Origin: Candidatus Altimarinota bacterium | GTDB lineage: Bacteria; Patescibacteriota; Gracilibacteria; UBA1369 | Direction: 5' to 3' | Assembly (NCBI GenBank): GCA_041659405.1 | Contig: JBAZYK010000001.1 | Coordinates: 90,001 to 122,000, forward strand | DNA length: 32,000 nucleotides | Part shown: positions 2 to 31,959 of the stretch, in pieces | How the letters are laid out: the number at the start of each line of letters is the position of its first letter | Position numbering within the stretch: position 1 is the stretch's first letter | The notes under the pieces: model-generated | What the model saw: the letters and a program-made list of their open reading frames with translations, nothing else | The model's database searches: none | Told to the model about the DNA's origin: nothing | Position numbers and translations under genes: made by a program

Positions 2-619
2 TTTGCAAATGGCTTGCGTACGGCTTTACGTCAGGATCCGAACATTATAATGGTGGGTGAAATTCGTGATCGTGAAACAATTGAAATTGCGATTGAAGCG
101 TCTTTAACAGGTCATTTGGTTTTATCAACAATTCATACAAACAGCGCGGTGGAAACTTTAACACGTATTGATAACATGGGAGTTCCGCCATTTTTGATGG
201 CTTCAACAATTGAACTTATTATTGCGCAGCGCTTGGTTAGAAAACTGTGCGATGCCTGCAAACAGCCCGATACTCCGAGTGCCGAGATGGTGGACAATGT
301 AAATCATGCATTAAAAAGCTTGCAGCCGACCGATGAAATCGAACCGGAAAAACTAAAAACCATGTCTTTCTTTAAGGCGGTTGGTTGTGATGTTTGTGAG
401 CATATCGGTTATAAAGGACGTCTTGGTTTATATGAAATTTTAAGAATGAATAATGAAATTCGCAAACTGGTTTTGGCCAGAGCGAGTTCTATAGATATAG
501 AAAAAGCGGCAATGAAAAATGGCATGGTTACTCTGGAACAAGCCGGAATTATTAAGGCTCTTAAAGGAGAAACTGCGCTGGACGAAATTTACCGCGTGGC
601 GAAGAGGATGGAGGAATAA
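2..619 (+). CDS. pilB: Type IV pilus / type II secretion ATPase (PilB/GspE family), C-terminal portion; 5' end lies outside the window
   Basis: The frame is open from nt 2; the listed start at 14 is only an in-frame TTG. It contains GEIRD, the His-box [12 protein letters not shown] and the tetracysteine cluster CDAC...CDVC typical of GspE/PilB hexameric ATPases. A PilC/GspF gene follows directly. Confidence 0.85.
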
Positions 620-677
620 CTCGGGATGTGGGACTTAGGTTCAATTATAAATTATAAAATTTCTTAATTAAAACGAC

Positions 678-11169: not shown

Positions 11170-11697
11170 ATGAAAACAAACTTAAAAAATTGGTCACAGG
11201 GTGCACTCAAGGGCTTCACGCTCATTGAATTACTCATCGTGATCACAATTATCGGTATCCTAGCAGTGGCTTTGTTGCCATCAGTACTAGGTGCTCCAGC
11301 CCGCGCAAGAGACGCGGCTAGAAAAGCGGATTTGAATAACATTGTTGCGGGATTGGAAACTTATAATAGTGATAATCAAAAGTATCCTGATACTGCTGGT
11401 AATTGTAGTGCTGTTGATGGTCTAACAAATTTCTCACAATATTTTCAGGGGGGCAAAATACCAAAAGATCCTCAGACAGGTTCATATCTATACTGTGGAG
11501 TTACAGGGAATGGGTCAGTGTCATATTACATCGTTTCCAAAGTTGAAATCGCAGGTGATGGAAATGCTTATTACGCTAGCGCTCCTTCAACTTCTATATT
11601 AGCTGATGTTTTTGGAGGTGCGACAATAATTGATCAATGTAAGCCAAAAAAATCAGCTGCAGCAAATGATTGTAATTACTATTTAATTGTAAAATAA
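11170..11697 (+). CDS. Type IV pilin / pseudopilin with class III (prepilin) signal
   Basis: MKTNLKNWSQGALKG|FTLIELLIVITIIGILAVALLPS is the canonical prepilin peptidase site G/FTLIEL with Glu at +5. C-terminal Cys pair (DQCKPKKSAAANDCNYY) as in pilin D-regions. The ORF-track start at 11113 (TTG) overlaps the putative promoter and adds 19 non-pilin residues, so ATG 11170 is preferred. Confidence 0.85.
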   Translation: MKTNLKNWSQGALKGFTLIELLIVITIIGILAVALLPSVLGAPARARDAARKADLNNIVAGLETYNSDNQKYPDTAGNCSAVDGLTNFSQYFQGGKIPKDPQTGSYLYCGVTGNGSVSYYIVSKVEIAGDGNAYYASAPSTSILADVFGGATIIDQCKPKKSAAANDCNYYLIVK

Positions 11698-12025: not shown

Positions 12026-12090
12026 CTTGTGTCGGCGGTTTTGGCTCGATGGGGTTGGAGTGTGCCCGGGGCTGACGAATTTTTTCAAAT

Positions 12091-12249: not shown

Positions 12250-12253
12250 ATCC

Positions 12254-12874: not shown

Positions 12875-12939
12875 GCTTGAGGATACGAGAGCGTGAGGTC
12901 AAAAGCCCTCCCCTTAAATCCGGCGTTTTTTTGTTGTCT

Positions 12940-13412: not shown

Positions 13413-13453
13413 CCGGCGGTTAGGTTTTTCGGTTATCATTGATTATGTTACTT

Positions 13454-15652: not shown

Positions 15653-15866
15653 AGTGGGGGTTTTAGATTATTAAATTAGTTCATGCCCGTTTAAAGGACA
15701 AGTGCATTTTAAAGAATCGACATGAAGAAAAACTAAAATGTTTCTTAAATTATGTTTAAATCCTGAAGGCAAACAACATCCGCATTTTCAGTCAATCTAA
15801 AATTACGAAATTTGGCCCTTTTAAGGCTTTTATGACCGATTTTTGATACTTAATTTGGCCGGATTT

Positions 15867-16008: not shown

Positions 16009-19000
16009 ATGTCTGAATACAAAAACATACAACGAGTTATTGCCGGCCTGATCCTCTTCTTTTTGAACGTCCAAATTTTGGAAGTTCCGCTTAGTAAAGC
16101 GGCTCAGGACTGGGCAGCGCAGGGGCAAGCAAACGCCGCATCCGCCCAAGGCGCTTTATCCACCATTCCATCCGCAAAAGCCGTTGATCCAAATCAAAAT
16201 CCGGCAACTTTGCCTCATTTGGGAATCATCGCCATTTTGGTTGATGACGATTTGATGAACAATAAACAAAATTATGCCGGGCTAACGGCTCAATATGCAA
16301 AAGACCTGAATACTCAATTGCTTTCCGACCGTGTTCATCGTTATGCGATTGACGCGCAGAGCTCGCAGCCGAATACAAAATCGCTAATAATTAAAACTTC
16401 CCCAACCTCAAAGGTTGAAGATATTGCAAATAGCTTAGAAAAGTTGTACCTGGAAGGTGATGGCAGCAAGGGCAAAATCACCAACCTGGTTGGAGTTGTC
16501 ACAATTGGTGATGTGCCTTTGCCGGTTGTGAATAAAAATGGTTATCGTTTTGTAAGCATGATGCCTTATACCGATTTTGAGGATAAGGTTTATATTTTTG
16601 ACGCGGCCAGTAGCGACTATCTGCCAAATCCAAATTTAAAATTTGCCAAAGAAGAAGTCTGGCAGGGCGTGATCAAACCTCCACTAAAAGGCGAAGAAGG
16701 CAATAATCTTTTGGCTTCTTATTTCGACAAAAATCATCTGTATCACGCCGGAAATGCTGATTATTCCGTTTTTGATAAAAAGCTTTTATTTGCGGATCTG
16801 TACAACGAATTCAAATCCATGAATAAATTGCAGTTTAATAGTTATTTGCGCTACTTGGCGCACTGGGCCGATTTTGCTTATCTGCGTTTTAATAAACATT
16901 TAGCTGATCAGTTTTTGCAGGAAGTTACGGGCAAACTTAAGGAGCAGGGCGTACCAACAAGTACCAAGGATGCACAGGCGACAGCGGCAAAACAGCAGGC
17001 TGAATTAAATCAGGCCGGAATCCCAAGTGATGGGTTGTTAACTCCCCCATGTGATAAAGATTGCGAGGATGCCAAGAGTAAAAATCCAAAACTTCCCAAG
17101 GGCGACAATAATGTGCAAGCCGCGCCCTCTTCAACCAATAGCATGCCGGATATTCAAACCCGCACGCTCATTTTGAATTTTGTAAGTAAGTACGTTCAGC
17201 TTTTTGATAAATTTTTATCAACAATTAATGATTGGGCCAATTATACCGGCCGCTATAAGGCTGCTTATGAGGATGGCAATGGCAACACTTTAAGCGACAT
17301 TCACAGTATTCCGGCGCTTATAAGTATCAAGGATCAAAATACCAGTGAATATTTTAAACAGGTAAATGACAGCATTGAAAGTGCGATAGACCAACGTGCC
17401 CAGGAACTGCAAAACAGCATGTTAATGATCCAAAATGTTCACTTGAGTGGACAGGTTTTGCTTAGTGGACAACCAAAACCACAAGACCTTTTACCATGGG
17501 ATTTTGTGAATTTTTCGGAACATACTTTTGGCAATTTTAAGACTTTATCCGTAAATGGCGTTCCGGCTTTTGCAATGCAAAGCACGGCTGATTGCAGTAT
17601 TTATCGTGGATCAAACAACAATGGCACAAATTCGGTGATGACAAAATCAATCAAGATTTACAATCCAAAATCGGCAAGTCAAAGTGAAAATTTTGCCGAT
17701 GACATTGTTAATTTTGGTGGATGTTTGGGCAATAATTATAGCCACCCTGAACGCTGTTTCCCGGAAGCTGCGATTGTTCCGGTTTTTGACCTTGTGGGGT
17801 CCAAAGAAGTTGATCCTGCAACCGTTCCGGAAAGTGCCACAAATTACCGCGCCTGCTATGATTTTAAAGAGAAAAATAACTTTGCAAAATACATTGATCA
17901 GGTTGGAACATACCTGAAATTATTTAAATTATTGAAAGATGATCCGACCGCACAAGACTCGCTCGATCCAATATTAAAAACGTTTGGGTCTTCACATCTT
18001 CCCACGTCACAAATATTTATTTTTATATCGCCAAATGTGTTTATCACCCTGGCTGATGTTTTAAAGAAATTAAATATTCCCGCTGACGACTGGGGGCAGA
18101 TTGGTGAAGGCTTTTTGGCTAATCTAAAACAAAATCAGTATGTGCTAAATAACCCTTTTCCCGGTGTTGATTCTTTGACTATCAATTTAACCGCCGAGGC
18201 GGCTGTGGATAATTTGAAAAATGCTCCGATAATTTTGCCAACAATTTCTTATCATAAAGAGCCGACTGCGGATGTTCATAATAAGCCTTATACAAGTATT
18301 AATGAACAATTGCAGGCCGGTGGATTTACCGAAAGTTTACCAAGTGATAATCCCCGTTATGTGGCTTTCCAAGACAAACAAGGGTACTTTCAGAAAATTT
18401 ATTATCCGGATGCTTTTTCGGCAAAAAGTTATAACGATTATTTAAAATCATTACAGGACACCGAAAATAAAATTCTTGATCTGTATGGAAAATTTGACGT
18501 TAATCTGGCTCAAAAAAATGAACACTTCTTAACGAAATTACTTGGGGAACAGGATCAACAAAACGCTAAGGACAAGAGCATTTTTGACATTATTGGTGCC
18601 GCAAAATTGACGGATGCTTTTTCCTGGAAAGATTTGAATATCGATCAAAAGCATAATTATGTATTTACCGAATATTTGGGCGCAAAGGCCGATCCATATG
18701 TGGAAAAAATGAAGAGTGGTTATGAAGCCATGTATTTTGTGAGCCGTGGAAGTACGGATACTTTCCAAACGCAATTTAATGGCGATTATCCGGAAGATGA
18801 CAAGGATTTAAGTTTGGATAGTGCTTTGCATCCGGCCAATACTCCGGAAACTTCACCAAGTGATGCCGGTTATGCTAAAGCCAAAGAAGAAGGTGAAGGC
18901 ATCTTTATTTTTGAATGGTTTAAAGAAATTGTTAAGTGGGTCAAAGAAACCACCAATAAATTAAGCGCGACTATCCAACTTGAGCCGGTTTGCGGCGTGA

Positions 19001-22000
19001 ATGATGGAAAAGATCCTGAAACCGGTGGGGCCGGTGTTGGCCAAGGGCCTGTGAGTCAAACGGCAAATACAAGCAGGTTGATGATTTCCGCCAATAAAAA
19101 TGTTTTAAAAACAGGCTCCGGTGATACTTTGACTTTGACGGTTGTAGGCGTGGATAACAAAAATATTATCCAGGCTGCAGATAGTCAAACCATGGTTGAT
19201 TTGACCATTTCCAAAAGCAATGGACAGGATGTGGTGACAATCGCAAGTACTCATCCAATGCAATTAAGCGGCGGGCGCACGACTTTTATGCTTCAGGCTA
19301 CGGATGTTATTGGCAATGTAACGGTTAATGCGTTTGTTCAGGGCAAAAAAATCACTTCCAATACTGTGCCTATCAGTTCGACCAAAGGCAGCATTCGACT
19401 ACTTTCTTATGTGCGTACTACAGGTGTTGTTTACGCGGAAAAAGTTGCTTCCGGATTTATAATTAAAGATGCAAATGGAAATGTGATTGCAGAAGTGGAT
19501 GGCAAAACCGGCATGGTGACAATTAAAGATGATCGTTATCAGCTTTTGGCACAACCTTCGGAAGGGGCTAAACCGGTGCGTCTTTCGGTTCAACAAAAAA
19601 CCGGAGATCTAATTGTGGCGAGTGTCTTTTTTGCGGTTGATGGAAAACAGCCGATTTTAATTGATGGCCCGGATGTTGATTATCTGAAATCTTTTGCCGA
19701 TCTTGCTGGCGTGCATCTAAAAGATCTTTCCAATAAAGATGATTATTCCGCGCAAAAATCGAGTAATTCGTTTAACAAAAATGGAATTTATTTATACGAA
19801 AAAAATGGAAATAATCAAAATAAATTTGGCATTATAGATACTTTGGGGAATGTTTACCTTGCGGCCGGTTTTGGCTTTCAGATGAAGTCCCCTGCGCAAG
19901 GAGCTGATCCGGTTATTTTCCAGATTTTGGGCAAAGACAATAAAGCTTTATTTGAAATTTATTTGGGTATTCAGAATCCAACGGTGCAGATTCTGAAGCC
20001 CGAAGGTGATTATGCCGCTTACAATACTTTGAATAAGTCCCAGTCTGATTTTAATGAAATTCTACTTCAGGGCGCGTTTAAATTGCCGACAGGTAGCGAA
20101 AGTCAGAATTCGGACCTTTGGAATAAAGGCGCTACTGCAGGCGTTATTCCGGACAGTGATAACGATGGCTTAAACGATCTGCAGGAACTTTTAATCGGCA
20201 CTAATCCAAAGAATGCGGACACCAACGGTGATTTGATTAAAGATGGCGACGAAATCAATAAAAATCTTAGTCCGTTCATTAAAGATACGGCTCTGTTTAA
20301 AGATTTAACGCCGGCGCACGAAGCCTTTAACGATATTTTAAAACTTTATAAACGTGGAATTATTTCCGGTTATGCCGATGGAACCTTTAAGCCTGAAAGA
20401 TTATTAAGCCGTGAAGAATTTGTAAAATTGGATTTGGGAGCCATTTGTATTTATTGCACAAAACTAAGCGAAACTGTGAAGAAATCAATTGACGCGGTTT
20501 ATAATCAAAGTCCTTTCCCGGATAAAAACTTTACGCCAAACCTCTTATATTGTGTTAAAGAGGCCAAAAATCGTTCGATCGTTTCCGGATATAAAGGCGG
20601 GAATCAAGCCGGATATTATTTGCCGACCAATTCAATCAGCCGCGCGGAAGCGAGCAAAATTATTTTGGAAACCGCACGTCAGCAGGGAAACAGTAAAATC
20701 GCCGTTGATCCTTCAATTCCGGATGGCAAACCATGGTATTACAATTACGTTTTAACCACTCAAAAAGAACATTTCTATCCCAACGGTCGCTTTAAAGAGC
20801 TTGATACACTTGCTCCCGCTGAGTTTAAAACCTGGTTTGATGCTCAGTTACAACAGGCTGCAAGCGGACAAAGTAATGCCTTTGTGACTTGGATTTCCGG
20901 TGGAATTACGCGCGCGGAATTTTCGATTATGGTTTCCCGTTTGATCAATAAAACCGATTGTTTCGCGGACGACCAGGACCACGAGGGCTTATCCGATAAT
21001 CTGGAAAAATATGTGTATGGAAGTTCTCCAACCAATCCGGACACGGATAATGGCGGCGTTGATGATTTTACGGAAGTCGTAAATCAGATGAATCCGCTTG
21101 ATAAAAAAGATGATAATGATTCCGATGGCGATGGCATGCCAAACAGTTTTGAGGTTAAATATGGCTTGAATCCGTTTGATCCTACCGATACAAATAAGGA
21201 TAAAGACTTTGATGGTCTAACCAATTTGGAAGAATATCAATATGGAACCGATCCGTCCAATCCTGACACGGATGGTGGTGGCGTTAACGATGGCGATGAA
21301 GTTTTGCAGAAAATAAATCCGCTTGATGCCAAAGACGATTTTAAAAATGCCGGTGCCAAAAACGGTTCATACATCGTTGGCGACAATATTTTTGATAACT
21401 ATGTTTTTGACCAGCAAACACCTCCGGCCAATACTTCAAGTATAAATTTTGAAGATCAGGTGCCGGCAGATGGCAAGAGCAAGCTGTTTTTACGCGCAGA
21501 AGTTTTAAATGACAATGGCGACATAGATACCGCCCAAAATGGAACGGTTAAAATTTATCGCAAAACGGATTCCGGGAATTTTGCCAAGATTTCTCCCGAT
21601 CAGGTTAAATTGCAAAAGGGCGTTGCCGAAAGTGAAATTACCGCTTCTACCCACGCCGGTGAATATGTGGTTAACGCAGAATTGAATGGCAAGAAACTTC
21701 CGGTGGATGATAAATCAATTTTTGTTACACCGCTTGATCCGGCCAAAATCGAAATAAAAGTTGAATCTGCGTCTATTAAAAGTGGTGGGTTATCCAACAC
21801 AATTGCTTATGTTTATCTTGAGGATGTAAACGGCAATATTGTAAATAATGGCACTAATCAATTAACTTTTACTGTTGATGGACCCGGCCTGATTACTACC
21901 GGGGATGAAGATCCACAGCAAGATGGCATACAACTTTCAAGCGTCAGTGGTGAATTTGAGGTCATGATCGCTTCACAAAAAGACCCCGGACAAATTACAT

Positions 22001-25000
22001 TAAAGGCAACCTATCAGGCGCCGATTGATGAATTGGTAAGCCCTGAATTGGCCGCGGGTACCCAGGCGGTTACTCATATTTACTCGCGTGATGATTTGCA
22101 TTTGACGCTTATTCCGGCAAATGGAAGTATCCCATCCGATTACAGCACCGTTACAAGTTTGCAAGCTTCCGTGCTGGATAAAAATAATCAGGTTGTAAAA
22201 AACTTTAATGGAGTGGCACAGTTTGCTCTGCTTGACCCGCAACTTGGGAAACTGGTTTCAGGCTCTTCACAAGCGGTAAAAAACGGTCAGGCGCAAAATG
22301 CTTTTCAGGCAAGTAACAAAGCCGGTGATGCTAACATTTCTGTGACAATAAATGGATTTGATCCTGCAAACGCGATTGTAAAAACTGCTCCAAAAGAGGC
22401 CAAGAAAATTGTTTTAGAGGCGGCAAGCGATACAATCGAAAGCAATCCTTCATCAATAATGGAGGTTATTGGCAAACTTTATGACACCGACAATAATTTG
22501 GTGACTAATAACTCGACTACCCAGGTGACTATTCGCCTTACGGACGCAACCAAGCCTTATGGATTATTCGACAACCAGGCTGTACAAGCCAAAAACGGTA
22601 TCGTGAAATTCGCTCTTCGCGGGACGGGGAAAACCGGCCCAATTAACATTATTGCTTCCGCGAAAGGACTTTTAGATGGTGGTTTGCAACTTCAGAGCGT
22701 AAATAATTTCAAGGCGGATGATTTAAAAAATATTAATCCACAGGTTTTATTTGCCGCGGTTTTGGGTTCGGCTTTTGGTGATACATTTAAGGATAACTAT
22801 CTTGGTGGATGGTTCCTGTTTTCGGGAAAAACCCAAAGTGTACTTTCGTTGATGAGTGATCCAAAACCACATTTGGGACTTGTTCAAGTGGATTATAGCG
22901 GACGAATTAAAGCTTTGAGCAGTGATAGGCTTGAGTCTAAAATCATTCCCGGGAATGCGGTTAATCAGCCTACCCGTGTTATTTACACAGACACATTGAC
23001 CAGCCAAAACATCGCGGAAGTTTTTGCGATTGCCAAACCACAAACTGCGGCAAAGGTTTTGGCTGCGCAAGCGCCCGTTGCAAATCTGGCTGAAGGTATT
23101 TATCTGCAGAATCTTTCAGATACTCAGGATTATAGTGTTGCTCAGGCCGGTGACAGCGTAAGCCTGGTTAATAAAGGTAATGAAGCTGTGAAGATTTTCA
23201 ACAATGGCGCGGTGAAAATTTTTGATAACAACTTTGCCCTTAAATATGACCCTGCGGCCAATGATGCCTATTTTATTTTACAAATTTATGATGGTGGCGT
23301 CGCGGCGGCCCAAATTATTTATGCCTATGGCTTTAGCGGCGATGTTCAAAAATTACCGTTTGAATTTGCGTATTCCAATCAAGCAAATTATCAACCGGGT
23401 GTTTATGTACACATGCTGGATTCCGGTAAACAGTTTGAATTACTTCCATCTTTTTCTGGTAACTCAACCGCTTTGCCACAGGGCGCGCTAATCACGGATA
23501 CAAGCGAAGAAATGGCTAACACTCAGGCTCCCGGACTAAGTTATTCTTCAATTGAAACGGCAGCGGATAATCCCGGTGTTGGCTTTCAGGGCGATAATAA
23601 ATTTATGCTGCTTTTCTCCGCTGGTAATTCCGTGGGCGAAGCAAACGTGCCATACGCTTCAGAAATTGGCGTGGTGCTTGGTGATCCTACAGTCCGCCTA
23701 AATAATAAAATCAATGTTTCCAAAACCGGATTCACTCAAGATATTGGTCAGGAAATTTATTTTGGGAATGCCGTAATTCAGGAAATGCAGCCAATAGATT
23801 ATAACTCCGATGGCAATAAAGATTTGGTTGTGGCTTATCAGGATGGAAAAATGCGCTTGCTGCAAAATACCAATTCTTATCCGCGCTTTACGGATAAAGG
23901 CGTGCTGCTAAATTTCCCAAATGGAATAATCAGTTTTACGGTTGGAGATTTTAATAAAGATAATCAACCGGACATTGTGGTTGCTTCACAAGATAGCTGT
24001 AGAAAGGGCGAAATCTGCATTGATGAATATGTGAATAATAATGGTAATTTTGTTCGCAACCATTTAAAGTTGCAGGGTTTCACCGATAAAAATCGCATTA
24101 ACATGATTCGCTCCGGCGACATGAATAGTGATGGTTATGCAGACCTGGTTACCTCCGATGATGCAGGGGTAATCCGCGTTTTCTATAATCGTGGTGGCAG
24201 TTTTGACAAAGGCCAATTCATTGGATCACTGGGCGTTCATATCGCTCAAAACGATAATTTAAAAACCGAAGTTTTGGTTGCTTACGACGGCATGCCGAAA
24301 GTTGATCCTAAAGATTCAAACAGTGAACTTAATTTCAGAGAATTGCCGGTGCAATTGCCTAGGAGTGGCTTAAGCGCTGCAGATCAGCAGGCTTATGATG
24401 AAGCTCTTAATTCCGGATCGGATGCTGCAACTATCACAAGTTCTCCGTTAACGGATCAAACTCAGACTCAATTTCTTTTTGCCGATGTTGATCCGGCACT
24501 TTTTGCGTCCGAAAAACGTGCCAAGGATTTAACGCCTCCACTTGATACTTTGGCTCGTGGCGATGAAGTGGCTTACACAATAACTCTAAAAAATAGCGGT
24601 AATAATGATTTGCAAAATGTAATGGTGAGTGACGTTGTGCCAACAAGCATGGAAATTGAAAAAGATACAATTACCTGTAACGACTGCGGGAAAGAAACCA
24701 TGCGAATTGGTGAAACCGGAGAAAGTTTACGTCCGTATATTTTCAGCGGATTCAGTATTCCTAAAAAAGGAGAGCGCACTATTACCTATAAATCCAAAGT
24801 TAAAACTACGCCAAGAGTAAAAATTTATCTTGGTCAGAATTTGGATGCTGCCTATCCACAGGATAATTTTATGGATATTGGCGCCGCTCCGGATGGAAAT
24901 AACACCGGAAGAATGACTTATTTCTATTCGATTTCACAAAATCAGGTTAGTCAAGAAATGAATTATGGAACTTATGTTTCTCCTCCGCCGGATCCAAAAC

Positions 25001-28000
25001 TGGACGCACCTCCTCCTCCGGCAGATCCTTTAGGCATTGGGTCGCCTACTCCAAGCATGTTTGAGCTAAAAGATGATGACGGTATTCCGATTGTTTTAAA
25101 GGATTATCAGGACAAGCAAAATGGCGCGCCAAATGTAGATCAGACAATTTCCGATGAAGATTCGGACGGTTTGTCCAACTCCTGGGATGATTTTAATCAG
25201 GGGCTAAATGATCTTGATGCGGGCATTAGCAATGCCGCAGATGGCATTCAGGGCGCGATTGCCATGTTTACCTGTGGTGGTGGTTGTATTCCAATGCCTG
25301 TGAATTTTGCTTTTTTGGCTACCGGAAGTATTAACGTAATGGGTCTTCCGCTTGGCTTTGATCCCGGCTTGCCGGTTTTTGGCTGGGGCGCCCCATACCC
25401 GCCATTTCTTTGGCCGGGTAGCCCTTATCAGACAACACTTGGTGGAAGAATTTATCTTTCCCCAACTGCAACAATGAGCCTTGGAGTCGGTGTTTGTATT
25501 GGGCCATATCCGGTGGGCCTGTGTTGGGCCATTTCAGTCCCTCCGGTACTTTTGGGAATGGCAGGAATGTGTGAAGCGATTTCCGGCGGAATTGGAAAAG
25601 CTTTTGCCGGGGTCAATAACGCAATCCAATCGGTGAATAATTTGACCATAAGTTCAGATGGCACGCCACCGGACGCGGATAGCTCCGGCAGGTCCGAAAC
25701 AGGCGGGGTTAAGGGCAGCGCGACTTTGGGGAATTATCAATACAAAGCCAGTGTTGGAACCAATTTCCGTATACCCGGATTCCCTGCATTTATTACCAAA
25801 TGGATCAGCGATCAAACTTCTGAAATCATTAATAAATTGACCGATTTACCGGACTTTTATTTCTTATATCCGGACCCAACTTCCATCATTGGAATGGTTG
25901 TTCCAACCGATGAAGGTCAACAAAGTGGCAATTCCAAACGCACAAAATCTTTTACTTTCCCATCTTTCTCGGCTGATCCGTTTAAAGATAAAAGCGGTTT
26001 GGTGAAAGTGGCAAACACTTTTAATCCAAATAAAATTCTGGCTTTCATGAACAGTTTGCCGCTGATTCAGATTGAAGCTAAAGAAGTTACAATTAAGATT
26101 CCGGCCCTTTCAGATAAGGAAATCGAGAAATTCAAAGCTGACGCGCAACAATGGGTTGAAGATGAACGCAATGAAGTTAACAGAGTTTTAGCCTTGTGGG
26201 GATGCGGTAAAAAGCACCTTGATGCAAGCTGGAATCTGGTTACCGAAGACGGTGATTATGTGTCACCTTACCAAACCATGTGTGACAAATTGCTCTTAAA
26301 TATGACAGATTTGAAGGGAGCAATCGAAAAAAATATTGCCGTAATTGAGGCATATAAGGAATTGCCACGTCAAATTTTGGCCTGGAGAAATATTTACAAG
26401 AAATACCTTACTCAAATTATTTGTTATATTGACGCGATAATTCAATTCACCGGCGGTTATATTAAAAAACAACAGAGTCGCATAATGCTCTGGATTAAAA
26501 TGATCAAGGAAGTTAAAGAGCTGATTGAAACATGGAAAGCCATTCTTGATTTAATTATTAATTATCAGGCTACGTGTGACCGCTGCAGTAACGCGCGCTT
26601 TACGCTGGTGGAACTTATTTTGCGTCTGTTTGCCATAATTCCGGCGCCACCCGTGATCCCTTTTCCAAAGTGGCCGGATATTTATCTGGATTTGTCGCAG
26701 GTTAAAACCGGCTTAAAGATTTTATGGCCCGATGTGAAATTTATTCCCGAACGGTTGATCCTGCCAAAAATTCCTAGGTTAATTTTGCCGGATTTACCGA
26801 CATTGACGCTTAATTTGCCGGAGATTCCGGTTATCCCGGGTCCACCAAAAATCAATCTTGATTTGCCGGATTTACCACCGTTGCCACTTCCTTCTTTGCC
26901 GGATATTCCACCTCCACCAAAGGTGCCCGGTATACCGGCACAGGTTAAAATCGTGATCAATATCATTAAAACCATTCTTAGGATATGGTGCATGATTAAA
27001 AAAGGACTCCTGCCGGTACCTGAATTGATGCTTAAGGGGCATATCGAACAAATGACAGAGCGTTCGCTTTCTCCGCTGCTGCCAATTGATTTGGGAATCA
27101 AACTGCAGTTCCCGCCAATTAAATACGAATCACTGGATCGTATTGAAATTATTGGTAAAACAAATTTCCAACTTGAGTTTGGATTCATTTATGACTTTGT
27201 GAATAACCTTGCCGAAAAATGGAATTCGCTTGCGACCGACCTGGTTAATCTGCTTAATAAAAAAGTCCAGGATGCCGCCAAGGCTGCCCAATCCGCCGCT
27301 GATGCCGCCAACAAAGCTGCTAAAGAAGCCGTGCCGGGTGGAAATATTGATGTAGGCCCGGGTGGCGTAAACAAGAGCAGCAGCTTGATGCAGTTAATCG
27401 GTTCCATAGAACATAATTATGTCGCGGATAGCGGCACAATGAGTGATATTGCCGAAATTAAGGCGATGGCGCAGGAGCTTGGCGATACAGGCACTTCTGC
27501 CGATGTTAATGCCCTTTCTGTTCCGGTTGAAAATATGACAAATGCAGATTTGGATAGCATTTTGAAACAGCTTGAGCAAAATGATCCATATCTTGGATCG
27601 GCGCTTAAAGAATTAAAGATCGCCTCAAAAGATTTGGAAAAAACCGCTAAAGATGCCGCTGAAAATAATAAGGAAATCGAAAAAGATATTCATCTAACAG
27701 CAACCGAAACTTATTTGTCTAAAGATGATCCGCTTTTAAACCGCTCACTTTCCGACGTGAAATCGGGTATTGCGCTACAAGATCTGCCAACTCTTGATGT
27801 CCAAAATAAAATGGTGGCAATGCGTGATGCATTTATTAGTTATTCCGATGATCAAACATCTGCCAACGATCAAATTAACCAAATGCAGGATCTGGAAAGC
27901 ATTGGCCGATTCTTGGCTCAAGCTAAGCCACTTCAAGACTACCTCAAACAGGATGTAAATGGTGAAAACCGCGGGGTGGCTGCAATTGGCAGTGACAGCG

Positions 28001-31000
28001 CGACTTCATCCTTTACCACAAGTTTAAATCCAAGTTCCAATTCGTCAAAAGGATTCAATGCAATCAATGACCAGCTTTCAATGGCCGAGTCTTTCGGTTC
28101 ATTTGCCGAAGATGCCCGCAAAAAATTCACGGAAGGCACTCGTTATTTGGCTGCTGTAAGCGGCCCACCGGATACTGCCGGCAATTTTACTCCGCAGGTT
28201 ATTCCTAAAGGACTTTATATTTATAATCCGGTTGATCAGATCAACGAGCGTTTAATTAAATATACCGCTGAAGTTGATCAACCGGCGCAAATGGCTTTTA
28301 TTGATGCGAATGCCGACTCCGATGAAGACTTCTTTTACGCTTATGGCAGCAATATTTACATGAAAGAAAATTATAAGATTCCGGATGTTCCAACATTTTA
28401 TGCCGGGGATCCAAAAGAATATCAGTTGAGCGATATATTGCCGGCTGCTCCGGAAGTTAATAATTTTGAAACGGTTTTAAATAATAATAAAAATATTGAA
28501 CTTACGTGGAATATGGCAACCTATAGCGATGTTTCCGGATACGAAATTGCTTACGGCTTAACACCGGATACTTTTGCGGGGGCTGCAGATGAACCTTCAA
28601 ATCTGCCGGTTCATAAAATTGGTGCGCTGATTGATTCTGCAATTTTGCCTAACAATGAAGATCAGGTTATTAAGGCAATAATCAAGAAAGGAACTTATCA
28701 AATAAATGGGGTGCCACCTGCCGCAGACGGCCTTGTTACCGCTGATCAGCCACTGCAAACCGATGACGGCAGTGAGGTTGAATTGAATTACAGCGCCAGC
28801 GCAAAAGTTACGGTGCCGGGTAATGTTATGTTTAGGCCGCCAACAATTTCAGGTCCGCAAATGGTCGCGGCCAACGTGCAGGGTGATGTGTTTTTCAGCG
28901 GACCGCAGCGCACTATTTTACTTTCCGGTTCCAATAAATTCCAGATTCCCGCTAATGCTTCCATCCACGCAATGACGGCAACAGCTTTGAATTTTTATGT
29001 TAAAGATCAGCTAACTGCGACTATGCTATTGCCGCTAAACGCCGTGTTCCAAGTTTCAAAAAATTATACGGATCCAATTTCCATTCAGGTTCAAAATGGT
29101 GGAATAGAAGTTGTTAATCCGGATAAAATCGTTCCTCATCAACGAATAATTAACGGTTTGATAATGGATTACGATCTGCCAATTACGTCCGAGAATGGCG
29201 GCACGGCCAATGTTCTGTTTGCGAATGGTTCTTATATGCGGGTTGATGTTAATGAAGATCTAACTTTTAAAAAACTAAATGCCACCGATACGCCGGACCT
29301 TAAACTCGAGCTGCCAAATGGCTTCTATTACGCACGTATTCGTTCTTTTGATCACCTGGGTTCACTTGGCACAGTTTCCAGTTTGAATCTTTTGGCTCCG
29401 ACAATTTGTGCCGATAAATCAGATCCATTCCCAAATGGTGGTGAAAGTGAGCGAACAGTTTCAATCTTTAAGACTTTAAAAATTGACTCTTCCAAGTCTT
29501 TTGCGCCGGACGGGAAAATTATTTTGTATTATCTTGATACCGATTTAACCAAAGACAGTGACAACAACGGTGACCTTACAGATGATAAAAATATGGGTCA
29601 CGACTTGGATACCCATGCCGATTCCGATGGCGATGGCATAACCAATAATGACCTTGATGCCGCGGTTTTTGAACTTGGACCATATACCGATCTTAAAGAC
29701 CGTGAAGTGATGTTGAATGTTGTGGATGAAGGCTTAAATCGCGCTCAGCAAAAAATCACTATTCATGTGGTTGTGCCGAATATCAAACTTGACCCGGAAA
29801 CCGCTACACAGGGCAAGATCCAGGGAAGTATCAACATGCCGGAAAACAATATTCCAATTGCCTTTGTGCGTGATCGTGGCGGTGTTTTGACGCCAATTCA
29901 AACTAAATCAGCCAATAGTAATGGAAAATATTTCACAGATGATAATGGAAAATTTGTGGTGAATGATTTGAATTTGAAAGACACGATTGTAATTAAGAAC
30001 AGTCAGGGACAAATTATTGGCGAAGTTGATCCAAATACCGGAAAAGTTATTTTGAAGGATAACCGCTATCATTTGGAAGTTTTGCCTGCAGAAAGGCCTC
30101 TTTTGCCAACTCGTATTGTTACCAAAGAAACAGCCACCGGCCTAATTATCAATACGATGCTGCTGATTCCGGATGCGAATACAGATACCACAATCGATAA
30201 ACCGGATCTGGTTTATAACTCCACCGGTGTTGGCATATTCAATGGTGTTCATGCCAAAGATGGAAATACTTTTGATGAGTTTGAATATAATAAAATTCCT
30301 TCCGATGATGCCAATTATCCGGGTGGAATTGAAATCACAGAAACAACAACCAAAAAACGGGCCGCGATTTTGGATACCGGTGGAAATTTCTATGTGCTGG
30401 ATAGCCGCTTAAGCCTGCGCTTAAAAGACACTACTTCTTTGGAAGATCCGCTGGTGATTGAAATTGTTTTGAATAAAGATTCCGCAAGTACGGTTATCGG
30501 CGAGTTCTATGTTGCCGTACACAGCACTAAGGGTTTGCAAATGCTGCCAAAGGCCAAGTTCCAATCTTATGTGGACCAGGCCAATAGCCGTGGACCTTTG
30601 TATGACAGCGACAATGACGGCATGCCGGATCAATGGGAACTTATTTATGGCTTAAGTCCAAAAGATCCTACCGATGCCGGCAAAGATAACGACAACGATG
30701 GTCTGACCAATCTGGAAGAATATCGCGCAAGCACTTCTCCACTTAATCCGGATACAAACGGTGATGGCATTTCTGATGGTGATGAATTGAAATATGGCCG
30801 TGCTCCTGGCAAAAAACTGGTTCTGCCTTACAGCGATATTGCGCAAAATCATCCTTACTATGAAAGTATTTTCAAGTTGTGGATTCGTCGCATTTTTGAA
30901 GGAATTCCGGGCTGGGGAAAGCAGTTGTTTGAACCTGATTCTTATCTTACACGTGCCGAATATGCGGACTTAATGTTGAAGATTTTCTGTATTATTCCGC

Positions 31001-31959
31001 GTAAGGAAGCCTATGACGGCCCTTCACCTTTTAATGATGTACCGTATGTAAAAGGCCAATTGCCATGGTATTACGCCATTATCAAAGAAGCTTTTTTCCA
31101 GGGTTTTGTTACAGGTTATCTTAAAGATGCTAAACAAATTCCTTACAAACCAAATGGCACTATTTCACGCGCGGAAGCGGTTAAAGTGATTTTGGAAGCT
31201 CTACAAAAACAGGGAGTGATTGAGATGGGCCAGATTCCGGCATTACCCGCTGGAACGCCTTATTATGCGCCTTACATGCAAATTGCCCAGGATTTGACGC
31301 CTTATTTAAAGAAGGCCGGATCTGTTAAAAAGCCATTTATTGTTACTGCGGATGAAGCAGCGCGGCCGGAAGATCCATTAACAAGAGCCGGATTTTTGGC
31401 TATGGCTGACCGCGTTTTGACAACTTCGGATTGTTCGGTACTTGATGATGATCACGATGGCATGCCAAGTCACTGGGAACTATTAAATGGCTTGAACCCA
31501 CACAATGCCAGCGATGCGGCAAAAGATCCGGACCGTGATAACCTAACCAATTTGGAAGAATATAAACACGGAACCGACCCGCATAATCCGGATACGGATG
31601 CTGGTGGCGTTAATGATGGCGATGAGGTCAAGAAAAATGGCACATTCCCGCTTGATCCGGCTGATGATCATTCGCAGCCACTGATTTCCGCGCCTGCCAA
31701 TTTGCCTGATCCACGCAGTGATTTGACCGAAGGGGTCTACATTATTCAGGATCCATGCGCAACTTGTCCTTGTCCTTCGGCAATCGACCACACCGCCGAT
31801 CTGATTGTTGGTGATAAAGTTTTTGGTTTGATTTCCAATAATGACAAACTCAAGCCAATAATTTACAGCAAGAGCAACGAAGTTGAAATTACCGAAATCC
31901 CGCAGCCGGATGCCGCGGCAACGTCACATGTGATTATTGAAAAAGTCGTTCAACAATAA
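16009..31959 (+). CDS. Giant multidomain surface protein (5316 aa): signal peptide, Ig-like, TSP3-like Ca-binding, SLH, FG-GAP/VCBS, DUF11-like and FN3-like parts, plus a hydrophobic Gly/Pro/Cys-rich core
   Basis: A 15,951-nt frame with no stop in AT-rich DNA; every ORF on the other five frames is at most 168 aa. N-terminal signal-like segment IAGLILFFLNVQILEVPLSKA. TSP3-type repeats (DSDNDGLNDLQE, DTDNGGVDD, DSDGDGMPNSFE..., DTDGGGVNDGDE). SLH motifs (FKDLTPAHEAFNDILKLYKRGIISGYADGTFKPERLLSREEFVKL; FNDVPYVKGQLPWYYAIIKEAFFQGFVTGY...ISRAEAVKVILEAL). FG-GAP motifs (DYNSDGNKDLVVAYQDGKMRLLQN, GDFNKDNQPDIVVA, GDMNSDGYADLVTSDDAGVIRVFYNRGG). DUF11-like LARGDEVAYTITLKNSGNNDLQNVMVSDVVP. Confidence 0.85.
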   Translation: MSEYKNIQRVIAGLILFFLNVQILEVPLSKAAQDWAAQGQANAASAQGALSTIPSAKAVDPNQNPATLPHLGIIAILVDDDLMNNKQNYAGLTAQYAKDLNTQLLSDRVHRYAIDAQSSQPNTKSLIIKTSPTSKVEDIANSLEKLYLEGDGSKGKITNLVGVVTIGDVPLPVVNKNGYRFVSMMPYTDFEDKVYIFDAASSDYLPNPNLKFAKEEVWQGVIKPPLKGEEGNNLLASYFDKNHLYHAGNADYSVFDKKLLFADLYNEFKSMNKLQFNSYLRYLAHWADFAYLRFNKHLADQFLQEVTGKLKEQGVPTSTKDAQATAAKQQAELNQAGIPSDGLLTPPCDKDCEDAKSKNPKLPKGDNNVQAAPSSTNSMPDIQTRTLILNFVSKYVQLFDKFLSTINDWANYTGRYKAAYEDGNGNTLSDIHSIPALISIKDQNTSEYFKQVNDSIESAIDQRAQELQNSMLMIQNVHLSGQVLLSGQPKPQDLLPWDFVNFSEHTFGNFKTLSVNGVPAFAMQSTADCSIYRGSNNNGTNSVMTKSIKIYNPKSASQSENFADDIVNFGGCLGNNYSHPERCFPEAAIVPVFDLVGSKEVDPATVPESATNYRACYDFKEKNNFAKYIDQVGTYLKLFKLLKDDPTAQDSLDPILKTFGSSHLPTSQIFIFISPNVFITLADVLKKLNIPADDWGQIGEGFLANLKQNQYVLNNPFPGVDSLTINLTAEAAVDNLKNAPIILPTISYHKEPTADVHNKPYTSINEQLQAGGFTESLPSDNPRYVAFQDKQGYFQKIYYPDAFSAKSYNDYLKSLQDTENKILDLYGKFDVNLAQKNEHFLTKLLGEQDQQNAKDKSIFDIIGAAKLTDAFSWKDLNIDQKHNYVFTEYLGAKADPYVEKMKSGYEAMYFVSRGSTDTFQTQFNGDYPEDDKDLSLDSALHPANTPETSPSDAGYAKAKEEGEGIFIFEWFKEIVKWVKETTNKLSATIQLEPVCGVNDGKDPETGGAGVGQGPVSQTANTSRLMISANKNVLKTGSGDTLTLTVVGVDNKNIIQAADSQTMVDLTISKSNGQDVVTIASTHPMQLSGGRTTFMLQATDVIGNVTVNAFVQGKKITSNTVPISSTKGSIRLLSYVRTTGVVYAEKVASGFIIKDANGNVIAEVDGKTGMVTIKDDRYQLLAQPSEGAKPVRLSVQQKTGDLIVASVFFAVDGKQPILIDGPDVDYLKSFADLAGVHLKDLSNKDDYSAQKSSNSFNKNGIYLYEKNGNNQNKFGIIDTLGNVYLAAGFGFQMKSPAQGADPVIFQILGKDNKALFEIYLGIQNPTVQILKPEGDYAAYNTLNKSQSDFNEILLQGAFKLPTGSESQNSDLWNKGATAGVIPDSDNDGLNDLQELLIGTNPKNADTNGDLIKDGDEINKNLSPFIKDTALFKDLTPAHEAFNDILKLYKRGIISGYADGTFKPERLLSREEFVKLDLGAICIYCTKLSETVKKSIDAVYNQSPFPDKNFTPNLLYCVKEAKNRSIVSGYKGGNQAGYYLPTNSISRAEASKIILETARQQGNSKIAVDPSIPDGKPWYYNYVLTTQKEHFYPNGRFKELDTLAPAEFKTWFDAQLQQAASGQSNAFVTWISGGITRAEFSIMVSRLINKTDCFADDQDHEGLSDNLEKYVYGSSPTNPDTDNGGVDDFTEVVNQMNPLDKKDDNDSDGDGMPNSFEVKYGLNPFDPTDTNKDKDFDGLTNLEEYQYGTDPSNPDTDGGGVNDGDEVLQKINPLDAKDDFKNAGAKNGSYIVGDNIFDNYVFDQQTPPANTSSINFEDQVPADGKSKLFLRAEVLNDNGDIDTAQNGTVKIYRKTDSGNFAKISPDQVKLQKGVAESEITASTHAGEYVVNAELNGKKLPVDDKSIFVTPLDPAKIEIKVESASIKSGGLSNTIAYVYLEDVNGNIVNNGTNQLTFTVDGPGLITTGDEDPQQDGIQLSSVSGEFEVMIASQKDPGQITLKATYQAPIDELVSPELAAGTQAVTHIYSRDDLHLTLIPANGSIPSDYSTVTSLQASVLDKNNQVVKNFNGVAQFALLDPQLGKLVSGSSQAVKNGQAQNAFQASNKAGDANISVTINGFDPANAIVKTAPKEAKKIVLEAASDTIESNPSSIMEVIGKLYDTDNNLVTNNSTTQVTIRLTDATKPYGLFDNQAVQAKNGIVKFALRGTGKTGPINIIASAKGLLDGGLQLQSVNNFKADDLKNINPQVLFAAVLGSAFGDTFKDNYLGGWFLFSGKTQSVLSLMSDPKPHLGLVQVDYSGRIKALSSDRLESKIIPGNAVNQPTRVIYTDTLTSQNIAEVFAIAKPQTAAKVLAAQAPVANLAEGIYLQNLSDTQDYSVAQAGDSVSLVNKGNEAVKIFNNGAVKIFDNNFALKYDPAANDAYFILQIYDGGVAAAQIIYAYGFSGDVQKLPFEFAYSNQANYQPGVYVHMLDSGKQFELLPSFSGNSTALPQGALITDTSEEMANTQAPGLSYSSIETAADNPGVGFQGDNKFMLLFSAGNSVGEANVPYASEIGVVLGDPTVRLNNKINVSKTGFTQDIGQEIYFGNAVIQEMQPIDYNSDGNKDLVVAYQDGKMRLLQNTNSYPRFTDKGVLLNFPNGIISFTVGDFNKDNQPDIVVASQDSCRKGEICIDEYVNNNGNFVRNHLKLQGFTDKNRINMIRSGDMNSDGYADLVTSDDAGVIRVFYNRGGSFDKGQFIGSLGVHIAQNDNLKTEVLVAYDGMPKVDPKDSNSELNFRELPVQLPRSGLSAADQQAYDEALNSGSDAATITSSPLTDQTQTQFLFADVDPALFASEKRAKDLTPPLDTLARGDEVAYTITLKNSGNNDLQNVMVSDVVPTSMEIEKDTITCNDCGKETMRIGETGESLRPYIFSGFSIPKKGERTITYKSKVKTTPRVKIYLGQNLDAAYPQDNFMDIGAAPDGNNTGRMTYFYSISQNQVSQEMNYGTYVSPPPDPKLDAPPPPADPLGIGSPTPSMFELKDDDGIPIVLKDYQDKQNGAPNVDQTISDEDSDGLSNSWDDFNQGLNDLDAGISNAADGIQGAIAMFTCGGGCIPMPVNFAFLATGSINVMGLPLGFDPGLPVFGWGAPYPPFLWPGSPYQTTLGGRIYLSPTATMSLGVGVCIGPYPVGLCWAISVPPVLLGMAGMCEAISGGIGKAFAGVNNAIQSVNNLTISSDGTPPDADSSGRSETGGVKGSATLGNYQYKASVGTNFRIPGFPAFITKWISDQTSEIINKLTDLPDFYFLYPDPTSIIGMVVPTDEGQQSGNSKRTKSFTFPSFSADPFKDKSGLVKVANTFNPNKILAFMNSLPLIQIEAKEVTIKIPALSDKEIEKFKADAQQWVEDERNEVNRVLALWGCGKKHLDASWNLVTEDGDYVSPYQTMCDKLLLNMTDLKGAIEKNIAVIEAYKELPRQILAWRNIYKKYLTQIICYIDAIIQFTGGYIKKQQSRIMLWIKMIKEVKELIETWKAILDLIINYQATCDRCSNARFTLVELILRLFAIIPAPPVIPFPKWPDIYLDLSQVKTGLKILWPDVKFIPERLILPKIPRLILPDLPTLTLNLPEIPVIPGPPKINLDLPDLPPLPLPSLPDIPPPPKVPGIPAQVKIVINIIKTILRIWCMIKKGLLPVPELMLKGHIEQMTERSLSPLLPIDLGIKLQFPPIKYESLDRIEIIGKTNFQLEFGFIYDFVNNLAEKWNSLATDLVNLLNKKVQDAAKAAQSAADAANKAAKEAVPGGNIDVGPGGVNKSSSLMQLIGSIEHNYVADSGTMSDIAEIKAMAQELGDTGTSADVNALSVPVENMTNADLDSILKQLEQNDPYLGSALKELKIASKDLEKTAKDAAENNKEIEKDIHLTATETYLSKDDPLLNRSLSDVKSGIALQDLPTLDVQNKMVAMRDAFISYSDDQTSANDQINQMQDLESIGRFLAQAKPLQDYLKQDVNGENRGVAAIGSDSATSSFTTSLNPSSNSSKGFNAINDQLSMAESFGSFAEDARKKFTEGTRYLAAVSGPPDTAGNFTPQVIPKGLYIYNPVDQINERLIKYTAEVDQPAQMAFIDANADSDEDFFYAYGSNIYMKENYKIPDVPTFYAGDPKEYQLSDILPAAPEVNNFETVLNNNKNIELTWNMATYSDVSGYEIAYGLTPDTFAGAADEPSNLPVHKIGALIDSAILPNNEDQVIKAIIKKGTYQINGVPPAADGLVTADQPLQTDDGSEVELNYSASAKVTVPGNVMFRPPTISGPQMVAANVQGDVFFSGPQRTILLSGSNKFQIPANASIHAMTATALNFYVKDQLTATMLLPLNAVFQVSKNYTDPISIQVQNGGIEVVNPDKIVPHQRIINGLIMDYDLPITSENGGTANVLFANGSYMRVDVNEDLTFKKLNATDTPDLKLELPNGFYYARIRSFDHLGSLGTVSSLNLLAPTICADKSDPFPNGGESERTVSIFKTLKIDSSKSFAPDGKIILYYLDTDLTKDSDNNGDLTDDKNMGHDLDTHADSDGDGITNNDLDAAVFELGPYTDLKDREVMLNVVDEGLNRAQQKITIHVVVPNIKLDPETATQGKIQGSINMPENNIPIAFVRDRGGVLTPIQTKSANSNGKYFTDDNGKFVVNDLNLKDTIVIKNSQGQIIGEVDPNTGKVILKDNRYHLEVLPAERPLLPTRIVTKETATGLIINTMLLIPDANTDTTIDKPDLVYNSTGVGIFNGVHAKDGNTFDEFEYNKIPSDDANYPGGIEITETTTKKRAAILDTGGNFYVLDSRLSLRLKDTTSLEDPLVIEIVLNKDSASTVIGEFYVAVHSTKGLQMLPKAKFQSYVDQANSRGPLYDSDNDGMPDQWELIYGLSPKDPTDAGKDNDNDGLTNLEEYRASTSPLNPDTNGDGISDGDELKYGRAPGKKLVLPYSDIAQNHPYYESIFKLWIRRIFEGIPGWGKQLFEPDSYLTRAEYADLMLKIFCIIPRKEAYDGPSPFNDVPYVKGQLPWYYAIIKEAFFQGFVTGYLKDAKQIPYKPNGTISRAEAVKVILEALQKQGVIEMGQIPALPAGTPYYAPYMQIAQDLTPYLKKAGSVKKPFIVTADEAARPEDPLTRAGFLAMADRVLTTSDCSVLDDDHDGMPSHWELLNGLNPHNASDAAKDPDRDNLTNLEEYKHGTDPHNPDTDAGGVNDGDEVKKNGTFPLDPADDHSQPLISAPANLPDPRSDLTEGVYIIQDPCATCPCPSAIDHTADLIVGDKVFGLISNNDKLKPIIYSKSNEVEITEIPQPDAAATSHVIIEKVVQQ

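Follow-up and report, generated by a model that had tools for sequence, protein, structure and literature searches.

Giant surface proteins and pili have been put forward as candidate host-attachment factors in Candidate Phyla Radiation (CPR) members related to the organism considered here (PMC8080830). In Vampirococcus lugosii (Absconditabacteria), an attachment role has been suggested for giant membrane or surface proteins with DUF11 and integrin domains (PMC8080830). Among bacterial phyla, Peregrinibacteria show the strongest enrichment in proteins of more than 5000 amino acids (aa), all of them uncharacterised (PMC11573180), and genes for type IV pili and S-layers, together with large exported Cys-rich and FG-GAP proteins, are known from Peribacteria (PMC4736985). 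A host-associated lifestyle has been discussed for the Peregrinibacteria-type lineage (PMC11573180, PMC8080830). Here, we have analyzed a stretch of 32 000 nucleotides (nt) from a contig of Candidatus Altimarinota bacterium (JBAZYK010000001.1, positions 90 001 to 122 000; hereafter the window), half of which is filled by a single gene for a protein of 5316 aa (hereafter the giant).

The source organism is a Peregrinibacteria-type member of the CPR, and the giant is a secreted envelope protein that combines S-layer homology (SLH) wall-binding modules with TSP3 repeats, immunoglobulin (Ig)-like domains and integrin-like FG-GAP repeats. Its conserved context, a block of pilus genes upstream and four partner genes (D1-D4) downstream, is the strongest clue to its function. 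On the basis of sequence comparison, we propose, with a probability of about one half, that the giant would be part of a doubly wall-anchored surface complex that is coupled to a type IV pilus and contacts other cells. The features of the window are collected in Table 1.

Table 1. Features of the window, with positions counted from its first nucleotide and residues counted along the giant
Feature	Positions	Strand	Residues	Remarks
PilB/GspE-like pilus assembly ATPase (3' part) and PilC/GspF-like platform protein	14..1955	+		
SLH protein 1	1982-3625			547 aa
SLH protein 2	3718-6870			1050 aa
PIN-domain toxin gene 1	7178-7900			preceded by MazE-type antitoxin
SLH protein 3	8168-11038			956 aa
Type IV pilin	11170..11697	+		175 aa from first ATG; prepilin motif KG/FTLIELLIV
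PIN-domain toxin gene 2	12351-12752			preceded by small ORF
PIN-domain toxin gene 3	13439-13876			preceded by small ORF
PIN-domain toxin gene 4	14375-14782			preceded by small ORF
ORF	14984-15652	-		222 aa; no family match
ORF	15144-15674	+		176 aa; no family match
Giant gene	16009..31959	+		5316 aa, ~580 kDa; ATG start, TAA stop
Sec-type signal peptide	16009..16104	+	1-32	putative cleavage after SKAA
N-terminal alpha/beta domain	16219..16761	+	~71-251	gingipain/caspase-like fold predicted
Helical/mixed region	16762..19050	+	252-1014	four invariant Cys
Ig-like domain, weak	19051..19413	+	1015-1135	BatD, GH2_C5, Invasin_D3 at E 0.013-0.13, all below cut-off
Super-module A	19459..21339	+	1151-1777	beta domain, TSP3 repeat, SLH triplet, TSP3 repeats
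About four Ig-like domains	21424..22638	+	~1806-2210	
Beta-rich region ending in FG-GAP repeats	22696..24288	+		Pfam matches at aa 2597-2662
DUF11/TIGR01451 repeat domain	24547..24801	+	2847-2931	one copy
Family-specific core	25231..27243	+	3075-3745	~670 aa
Ala/Lys-rich and acidic low-complexity region	27244..28143	+	3746-4045	
Beta-rich region, no family	28144..29988	+	4046-4660	
Super-module B	29989..31671	+	4661-5221	SLH triplet and TSP3 repeats
C-terminal tail	31726..31956	+		CxxCxC (CATCPCPS); 48% mean identity at aa 5251-5300

Results

A single gene under constraint

A preliminary description of the window, made by a model from the letters and their open reading frames (ORFs) alone, had reported one uninterrupted frame of 15.95 kb. 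This was borne out: no stop codon occurs in the 5316 codons of the giant's frame, whereas the alternative frames contain 258 and 533 over the same span, so that a chance origin of the frame is far excluded. The window sits within the 167-kb ENA contig ERZ27249449 k141_184062, and the identical protein is also recorded from a 235-kb contig, with two NCBI accessions (MFA5828967.1 and MFA6343961.1) deposited as 'S-layer homology domain-containing protein [Candidatus Gracilibacteria bacterium]'. In addition, the final 8549 nt of the window recur without mismatch on a 67-kb contig of the NCBI metagenome-assembled genome (MAG) GCA_041664325.1. The identical ORF, or its comparable part, is present in three separately deposited assembly records.

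The same description had raised the worry that relatives might show the frame to be a fusion of several genes. We collected 81 related loci. Both ends of the ortholog are visible in 44 of them, and 42 of these carry it as one frame of 3857-5597 aa; in the remaining related loci the frame stays open up to the contig end. Intact orthologs were also found on closed chromosomes of 1.3-1.5 Mb. Three loci are exceptions: L023 and L027 have one or two frame changes each, and in L005 (JAXLZP010000001.1) the ortholog is split into approximately nine frame segments, which reflect either assembly indel errors or a decaying copy. Genetic code 25, suggested by the NCBI label 'Gracilibacteria', was considered and rejected. 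A neighbouring gene stops with TGA and the giant contains no in-frame TGA, so the standard bacterial code applies; all ORFs are intact under table 11.

With aa 1-4660 of the giant as query, a homology search at E <= 1e-10 matched 212 proteins. Of the 120 matches listed, 91 have a length of 4900 aa or more, with identities from 47% down to 26%. An alignment of 91 relatives is colinear along the whole length of the giant. Overall, the family comprises more than 200 relatives of 3900-6100 aa. The pattern of its central core (see below) is present in 206 species-level genomes (Peregrinibacteria/Peribacteria); the best 80 of these are essentially all Peregrinibacteria, Peribacteria or 'Gracilibacteria'/Patescibacteria MAGs, and the genomes of the named relatives are 1.3-1.5 Mb in size. 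Compared with its closest ortholog (L004, 67% amino-acid identity), the giant has a ratio of non-synonymous to synonymous differences per site (pN/pS) of 0.15-0.40 in every 300-aa window, as expected under purifying selection, and the corresponding ratio of substitution rates for the whole gene (dN/dS) is approximately 0.09 with dS saturated. It should be noted that a few family members are filed under unrelated phylum names, namely L046 (JAUVQE010000014.1, 'Nitrospirota') and P0025 and P0313 ('Pseudomonadota'); these are probably mis-binned contigs or labelling errors.

Export signal and two wall anchors

Domains were sought with Pfam and NCBIfam profiles at curated cut-offs; unannotated segments were rescanned in Pfam at E <= 1, and the whole protein at E <= 0.01. 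The giant starts with a Sec-type signal peptide, and the relatives conserve its basic n-region, its hydrophobic h-region and the A-A site. Its N-terminus reads MSEYKNIQRVIAGLILFFLNVQILEVPLSKAA; no Gly is followed by Glu at +5, and hence a class III pilin signal is absent. Nor could a prepilin G/FxxxE motif, a lipobox Cys or an LPXTG motif be identified. RTX and HemolysinCabind profiles (Pfam, NCBIfam) gave no match in the giant, which has the N-terminal Sec signal in place of the hallmarks of type I secretion.

Super-modules A and B are paralogues with 28-36% identity (self-BLAST), each containing exactly three SLH units flanked by calcium-binding TSP3 repeats. The TRAE-type SLH motifs lie at aa 1467, 1544 and 1634 in A and at aa 4981, 5053 and 5125 in B, with a spacing of 72-90 aa. 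The Pfam SLH profile (PF00395, cut-off 20.8 bits) scores 58.9 bits in A and 27.2 bits in B, and TSP3_bac reaches 55.9 bits in A. Near the C-terminus (window positions 30409-31956, aa 4801-5316), the giant also matches the Amuc_1099 family pilus-like system protein (NF042425) with 60.4 bits against a cut-off of 50. We rejected this candidate: the match consists of two short stretches, the best covering model positions 106-151 of 321, and since these are confined to the TSP3 repeats, it reflects a shared repeat and not family membership. Automatic annotation could mis-name the giant at this point.

Three relatives (L056, L057 and L070) lack super-module A, their alignment skipping from aa ~990 to aa ~1820 of the giant; they may represent a sub-family with a single wall anchor and a different gene context.

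Pilus genes upstream

The first genes of the window encode the PilB/GspE-like ATPase and the PilC/GspF-like platform protein (T2SSE 196 bits and T2SSF 186 bits in Pfam; PilB 507 bits and GspF 302 bits in NCBIfam), and the pilin matches N_methyl and T2SSG in Pfam as well as TIGR02532 (31 bits, cut-off 16.3). Just upstream of the window lie a PilN-like gene (477 aa, bitopic, with a weak PilN-like end) and a PilO-like gene (218 aa), so that the complete order in the source is L10, L7/L12, PilN-like, PilO-like, PilB, PilC, three SLH proteins, a MazE/PIN pair, pilin, three PIN toxins and the giant. In approximately 20 related loci with sufficient upstream sequence, the pilin gene directly precedes the giant; PilC precedes the pilin in nine of them, and PilB precedes PilC in two. 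In a relative of only 34% identity (L084), the genes form a compact PilB-PilC-pilin-giant-D1-D4 block with overlapping stop and start codons, and two orthologous unknowns precede PilB. Synteny extends past the pilus block in both L001 and L084, with RecJ, IPPT, L10 and L7/L12 upstream and HTH_17 and UvrA downstream.

Four partner genes downstream

The DNA downstream of the giant was taken from the NCBI copy, which overlaps the window exactly. The giant is followed there by D1 (217 aa), D2 (234 aa), D3 (~590 aa) and D4 (371 aa), which are separated by 4-106 nt (L133, positions 8605-13016, directly past the window); the next genes, HTH_17 and UvrA, lie on the opposite strand. The order D1-D2-D3-D4 was found behind the giant in 57 of the 70 loci with detectable D genes. 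In the other 13, part of the set was found in unchanged order; some of these loci are truncated at a contig end, and in others D1 scores below threshold.

All four proteins have Sec-type N-termini, helical bodies and conserved Cys residues, with the C-terminal motifs LPCYxKxxCxKG, TTTxCT, ACxxLKNKKxCE and QCTKxxxxKxC. A Cys lies within the last eight residues in 89-99% of the members of D1, D2 and D4 and in 58% of those of D3, which also carries an invariant CxxC (nCIxCH). D1-D4 matched nothing in Pfam, NCBIfam or PDB, and they are not pilins, having no prepilin G/FxxxE motif. A match of D1 to polyubiquitin (E 3e-12) was rejected, as it sums one weak 24-residue match over tandem ubiquitin copies and no single stretch passes. 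When profiles were compared with each other, D1-D4 showed no relationship to any 400-aa slice of the giant (probability <3%); among themselves they reached 43-59% at best, with a weak likeness in the C-terminal ~80-100 aa.

A family-specific core

Between the two anchors lies a core without precedent in the databases searched. It consists, in order, of a Cys/Gly/Pro-rich beta part, long helical hairpins with a CxxC, a Pro-rich LPxIP segment (26755-26940) and an amphipathic helix. Its pN/pS of 0.15 is the lowest in the giant gene, and an alignment of 23 diverse cores revealed 57 invariant columns, nine of which are Cys; the C-terminal tail likewise has invariant cysteines. The conserved motifs include tCxgGCipxP, aFLapG, RxYLSPTLT, PGFP, DLPDiyfiYPd, iiCYxDai, sCDxCxxxR and PKlPDi, as well as a Pro-rich LPxLP/PPPP stretch.

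Searching 1.84 billion representative proteins with the core profile yielded 558 matches, 343 of them at E <= 1e-30. In nearly all of the 150 best of these, the core lies deep within proteins of 2000-6100 aa; the few shorter matches begin or end inside the core and therefore look like fragments. Nothing consistent was found when the members of the core family were compared with Pfam, and the best match of the core profile among PDB sequences had an E of 0.26. The AlphaFold2 (AF2) model of the core is weak (predicted local distance difference test, pLDDT, 57); it suggests a Cys-rich beta part, long helical hairpins including a helix of ~73 residues and a Pro-rich linker. With this weak model, the best fold match was at E 0.95 in PDB and at E 0.013 (probability 0.28) among viral folds.

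The hydrophobic Gly/Pro/Cys stretch and the Pro-rich LP.IP repeat that the preliminary description had noticed here do exist, but across the family the former does not resemble a transmembrane segment. The family median of the best Kyte-Doolittle hydropathy over 19 residues (KD19) is 1.45-1.64, and the best windows hold two to three Pro or charged residues; transmembrane anchoring by the core was thus rejected.

Remaining architecture of the giant

Significant Pfam matches span only about a quarter of the giant, as estimated from the match spans, and the earlier statement that more than a third of it could not be placed was an understatement. Internal repetition is low (self-BLAST), nearly every segment being a distinct conserved domain. 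Most of the elements read from motifs beforehand were recovered, namely the signal-like N-terminus, the paralogous super-modules with three SLH motifs and TSP3 repeats each, the four Big-like Ig domains, the FG-GAP repeats and the DUF11 domain, the low-complexity region and the CATCPCPS tail. Exceptions are an Ig-like domain placed at ~19080, which gained weak support only (Table 1), and an FN3-like domain placed at ~28441, for which no match appeared at E <= 1.

The first ~1000 aa had been considered free of recognisable motifs, yet they include the N-terminal alpha/beta domain, which is the conservation peak of the whole protein (45-62% identity among the 91 relatives), with motifs such as GDVPLPVVNKxGxRF and PYTDFED. 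Its AF2 model has a pLDDT of 80-90. The best PDB fold match was the catalytic domain of gingipain K (4rbm; probability 0.98, E 0.15, 182 aligned columns, root-mean-square deviation 4.5), and caspase appeared further down the list. The Pfam C25 family was not matched in the scan of the giant, and the profile of the domain found no match among PDB sequences. In a set of 5.8 billion proteins, only short N-terminal fragments of the giant family could be identified. The catalytic His-Cys dyad of peptidase C25 and caspase-fold proteases is missing from the domain: aa 62-330 contain no Cys that is invariant or near-invariant in the family, and a near-invariant His is replaced by Gln in the source giant. 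Thus, we read the domain as a putative C25/caspase-like module that is probably non-catalytic.

The helical/mixed region that follows (aa 252-1014) gave no Pfam or NCBIfam match; it has its invariant Cys residues at aa 529, 572, 583 and 616, and its structure model is of low confidence. At a point between aa ~300 and ~380 of the giant, an extra segment of 150-400 aa is present in many relatives; it is rich in DxDxDG-type (TSP3/calcium-binding-like) repeats and Cys residues and is absent from the source giant. Beyond super-module A, the Ig-like domains match Invasin_D3 (66 bits, three stretches), Glyco_hydro2_C5 (64 bits, two stretches) and Big_1, and an internal repeat was detected between aa 1806-1953 and aa 2036-2174 (self-BLAST). 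The FG-GAP repeats are well above the Pfam cut-offs (FG-GAP_3 51.6 bits, cut-off 26.9, two stretches; FG-GAP 41.4 bits, cut-off 22.1), and aa 2500-2750 are strongly conserved in the 91-relative alignment; from these matches, the region is a probable integrin-like beta-propeller. DUF11 scored 33.2 bits (cut-off 24.6) and TIGR01451 33.6 bits (cut-off 24). The low-complexity region is poorly conserved (occupancy 0.25-0.9, identity 0.04-0.30) and has no family match at E <= 1, and for aa 4046-4660 only sub-threshold matches to Ybfg_C, FecR and PD40 were obtained.

Other genes and elements of the window

Three paralogous SLH proteins are encoded between PilC and the pilin. They are 54-60% identical in an anchor region at the N-terminus and in an SLH triplet at the C-terminus, and one contains FlgD_ig; with the giant they have only SLH domains in common. 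They may be S-layer or surface proteins of the lineage. Four PIN-domain toxin genes, all within a span of 8 kb, are also inserted into the pilus/giant block; they are absent from the compact block of L084. Shortly before the giant, two ORFs overlap on opposite strands, and the one on the minus strand, if real, would break co-transcription of the pilin and the giant. A scan for promoters and terminators upstream of the giant gave nothing above chance, and an Rfam scan of the window gave no match.

Discussion

How the proposed complex might work

According to the reading that we favour, the giant would be exported via Sec and displayed as a ~580-kDa surface protein, which the SLH triplets of both super-modules would pin non-covalently to the cell wall. 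The ~1000-aa N-terminal head, with its presumably non-catalytic gingipain/caspase-like domain, would project from the first anchor. Between the anchors, ~2900 aa could form a two-legged arch composed of the Ig stalk, FG-GAP propeller, DUF11 domain, core, Pro-rich segment, low-complexity region and beta domains, with the conserved core at or near the apex. The arch would be expected to point outward, because ~2900 residues of folded domains seem too much for the gap between membrane and wall. D1-D4 might bind the giant, probably via disulfides, to form an envelope complex that would be made alongside a type IV pilus-like filament and cooperate with it: the pilus would reach and pull, and the wall-anchored complex would provide stable contact with another cell or surface. 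It is from sequence features and gene order that we infer the shape of the arch, the association with D1-D4, the disulfide bonds and a role in adhesion or host contact.

Several observations weigh against this proposal. A gap of ~4.3 kb, occupied by three PIN toxin genes and possibly by an ORF on the opposite strand, separates the giant from the pilin here, so that co-transcription of the pilus genes and the giant is not assured in the source, and L056, L057 and L070 have no pilin within 0.9-1.6 kb upstream. The gene neighbourhood alone cannot tell an adhesion partner of the pilus from a structural pilus portal. The core, although the most constrained part, has no recognisable fold, and conservation this strong is more in keeping with an internal partner than with a variable host receptor. 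In addition, SLH binding requires a pyruvylated wall polymer, and no host is known for the source organism.

Alternative explanations

The main rival, which we regard as unlikely, is that the giant and D1-D4 form a fixed wall or S-layer structure with no direct role in binding cells, for example a collar for the exit of pili from cells lacking an outer-membrane secretin, or a general organiser of the envelope. The presence of two wall anchors and the near-universal occurrence in the lineage (the 206 species genomes) would suit such a scaffold, as would the constant place of the gene between the pilin gene and D1-D4. Moreover, the extreme conservation of the core, together with its lowest pN/pS in the gene, would be expected of a structural interface and not of a host-facing surface. 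However, no ring-forming or secretin-like domain was found in the Pfam/NCBIfam, PDB sequence and core fold searches, and it is adhesins rather than portals that typically carry Ig stalks, an FG-GAP propeller and DUF11. It should also be considered that the type IV pili of other monoderms are not known to need such a component, and that a multidomain protein of 580 kDa would make a costly collar.

It is rather improbable that the giant is a device that engages host membranes, in which the core at the tip of the arch would insert into or perturb the membrane of a host or prey in a feeding or fusion-like process, with D1-D4 as accessories. This idea is entirely speculative. It would draw on the conserved hydrophobic Gly/Pro-rich stretch and the amphipathic helices, on the predicted ~73-residue helix and helical hairpins, on the position of the core approximately midway between the wall anchors and on the predatory, cytoplasm-consuming lifestyle documented in related CPR (PMC8080830). 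Yet no window of the core is consistently as hydrophobic as a transmembrane helix, and the core model, weak as it is, showed no likeness to pore-forming or fusion proteins in PDB or among viral models.

A pilus-tip adhesin, with the giant as an analogue of PilY1/PilC and D1-D4 as unconventional minor pilins, is disfavoured and appears very improbable. A pilin-adjacent gene followed by four small genes recalls fimU-pilVWXY1E (see also PMC5979040), and the giant does contain a beta-propeller-type region, but Sec-type signals are found in all five proteins where prepilin G/FxxxE motifs would be needed, the PilY1 propeller family was absent from the Pfam scans of the whole protein and its unannotated segments, and two SLH triplets would tie the giant to the wall, which is incompatible with a filament that extends and retracts. 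Finally, that the frame is a mis-assembly fusion of several genes or a decaying pseudogene, as the frame changes in L005, L023 and L027 might hint, is refuted for practical purposes by the concordant assembly records, the single-frame orthologs (including those on closed chromosomes), the purifying selection in every window and the colinear architecture of the relatives, and the gene is real and constrained.

Starting from our proposal of a pilus-coupled, wall-anchored contact complex, a more far-reaching version can be formulated, which is tentative and in our opinion doubtful: the giant, its core and D1-D4 might constitute an as yet undescribed, lineage-defining envelope machine of Peregrinibacteria that is mechanically coupled to the pilus and whose core, at the apex of the doubly anchored arch, makes direct contact with the envelope of a host cell and perhaps penetrates it.

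Significance

Peregrinibacteria are widespread and uncultivated, with no known host, and they are tiny and probably host-dependent bacteria. Approximately 1% of a genome of 1.3-1.5 Mb is spent on the giant gene, which is under purifying selection over its whole length and has a fixed place in the pilus operon; on account of this cost, selection and position, the giant, D1-D4 and the pilus genes are the most obvious candidate for cell contact. The core and D1-D4 are new sequence families without structural precedent, and together with the pilus genes they provide a defined and testable set of targets.

Comparison with known systems

In the literature searched, the coverage of which was limited, we found no description of the giant family, its core or the operon. 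The sequence itself has been deposited under a generic name and is in this sense already known; the picture of a family with dual anchors, an orphan core, D1-D4 and linkage to pilus genes appears to be undescribed. The giant genes of Omnitrophota are likewise very long single ORFs of uncultivated, ultra-small bacteria that are probably host-dependent or predatory (10.1101/2023.11.21.568195; PMC10066038), but they belong to another phylum and encode much longer proteins of different composition, and Peregrinibacteria, SLH and type IV pili go unmentioned in the preprint on these genes (10.1101/2023.11.21.568195). The giants of Vampirococcus and other Absconditabacteria (PMC8080830) and the 'huge proteins' of Peregrinibacteria (PMC11573180) come from CPR lineages as well, combine DUF11 with integrin/FG-GAP domains and have been proposed to act in host recognition and attachment. 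However, these studies report sizes and domains only and do not describe the giant family, the core, the dual SLH anchors or the operon.

Among known systems, the PilY1/PilC and minor-pilin tip complex of type IVa pili (PMC5979040) is similar in that a large non-pilin protein with a propeller-type region is encoded among pilus genes, next to four small neighbours. In the giant locus, in contrast, there is no PilY1-family match, the small proteins have no prepilin motifs and wall anchors are present, so the likeness lies in gene order only. The giant would at most work alongside the pilus, not on it.

Giant calcium-dependent adhesins with Ig repeats (LapA, SiiE, MpIBP and Bap-type proteins) resemble the giant in their huge size, Ig-like extenders, calcium repeats and a presumed function in fixing the cell to a surface. 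Export of these adhesins is by type I secretion, through a C-terminal RTX signal, and their sequences are highly repetitive, whereas the giant has an N-terminal Sec signal, no RTX match and little internal repetition. The SLH-anchored surface proteins of monoderms, such as S-layer-associated proteins, the anchoring scaffoldins of Clostridium thermocellum and the BSL proteins of Bacillus anthracis, have in common with the giant a Sec signal, a TRAE-type SLH triplet, non-covalent wall binding and a modular extracellular part. The giant differs from them in its 5316 aa, in having two triplets ~3300 aa apart within duplicated super-modules of ~600 aa, in its orphan core of 670 aa and in its fixed linkage to pilus genes and four orphan partners.

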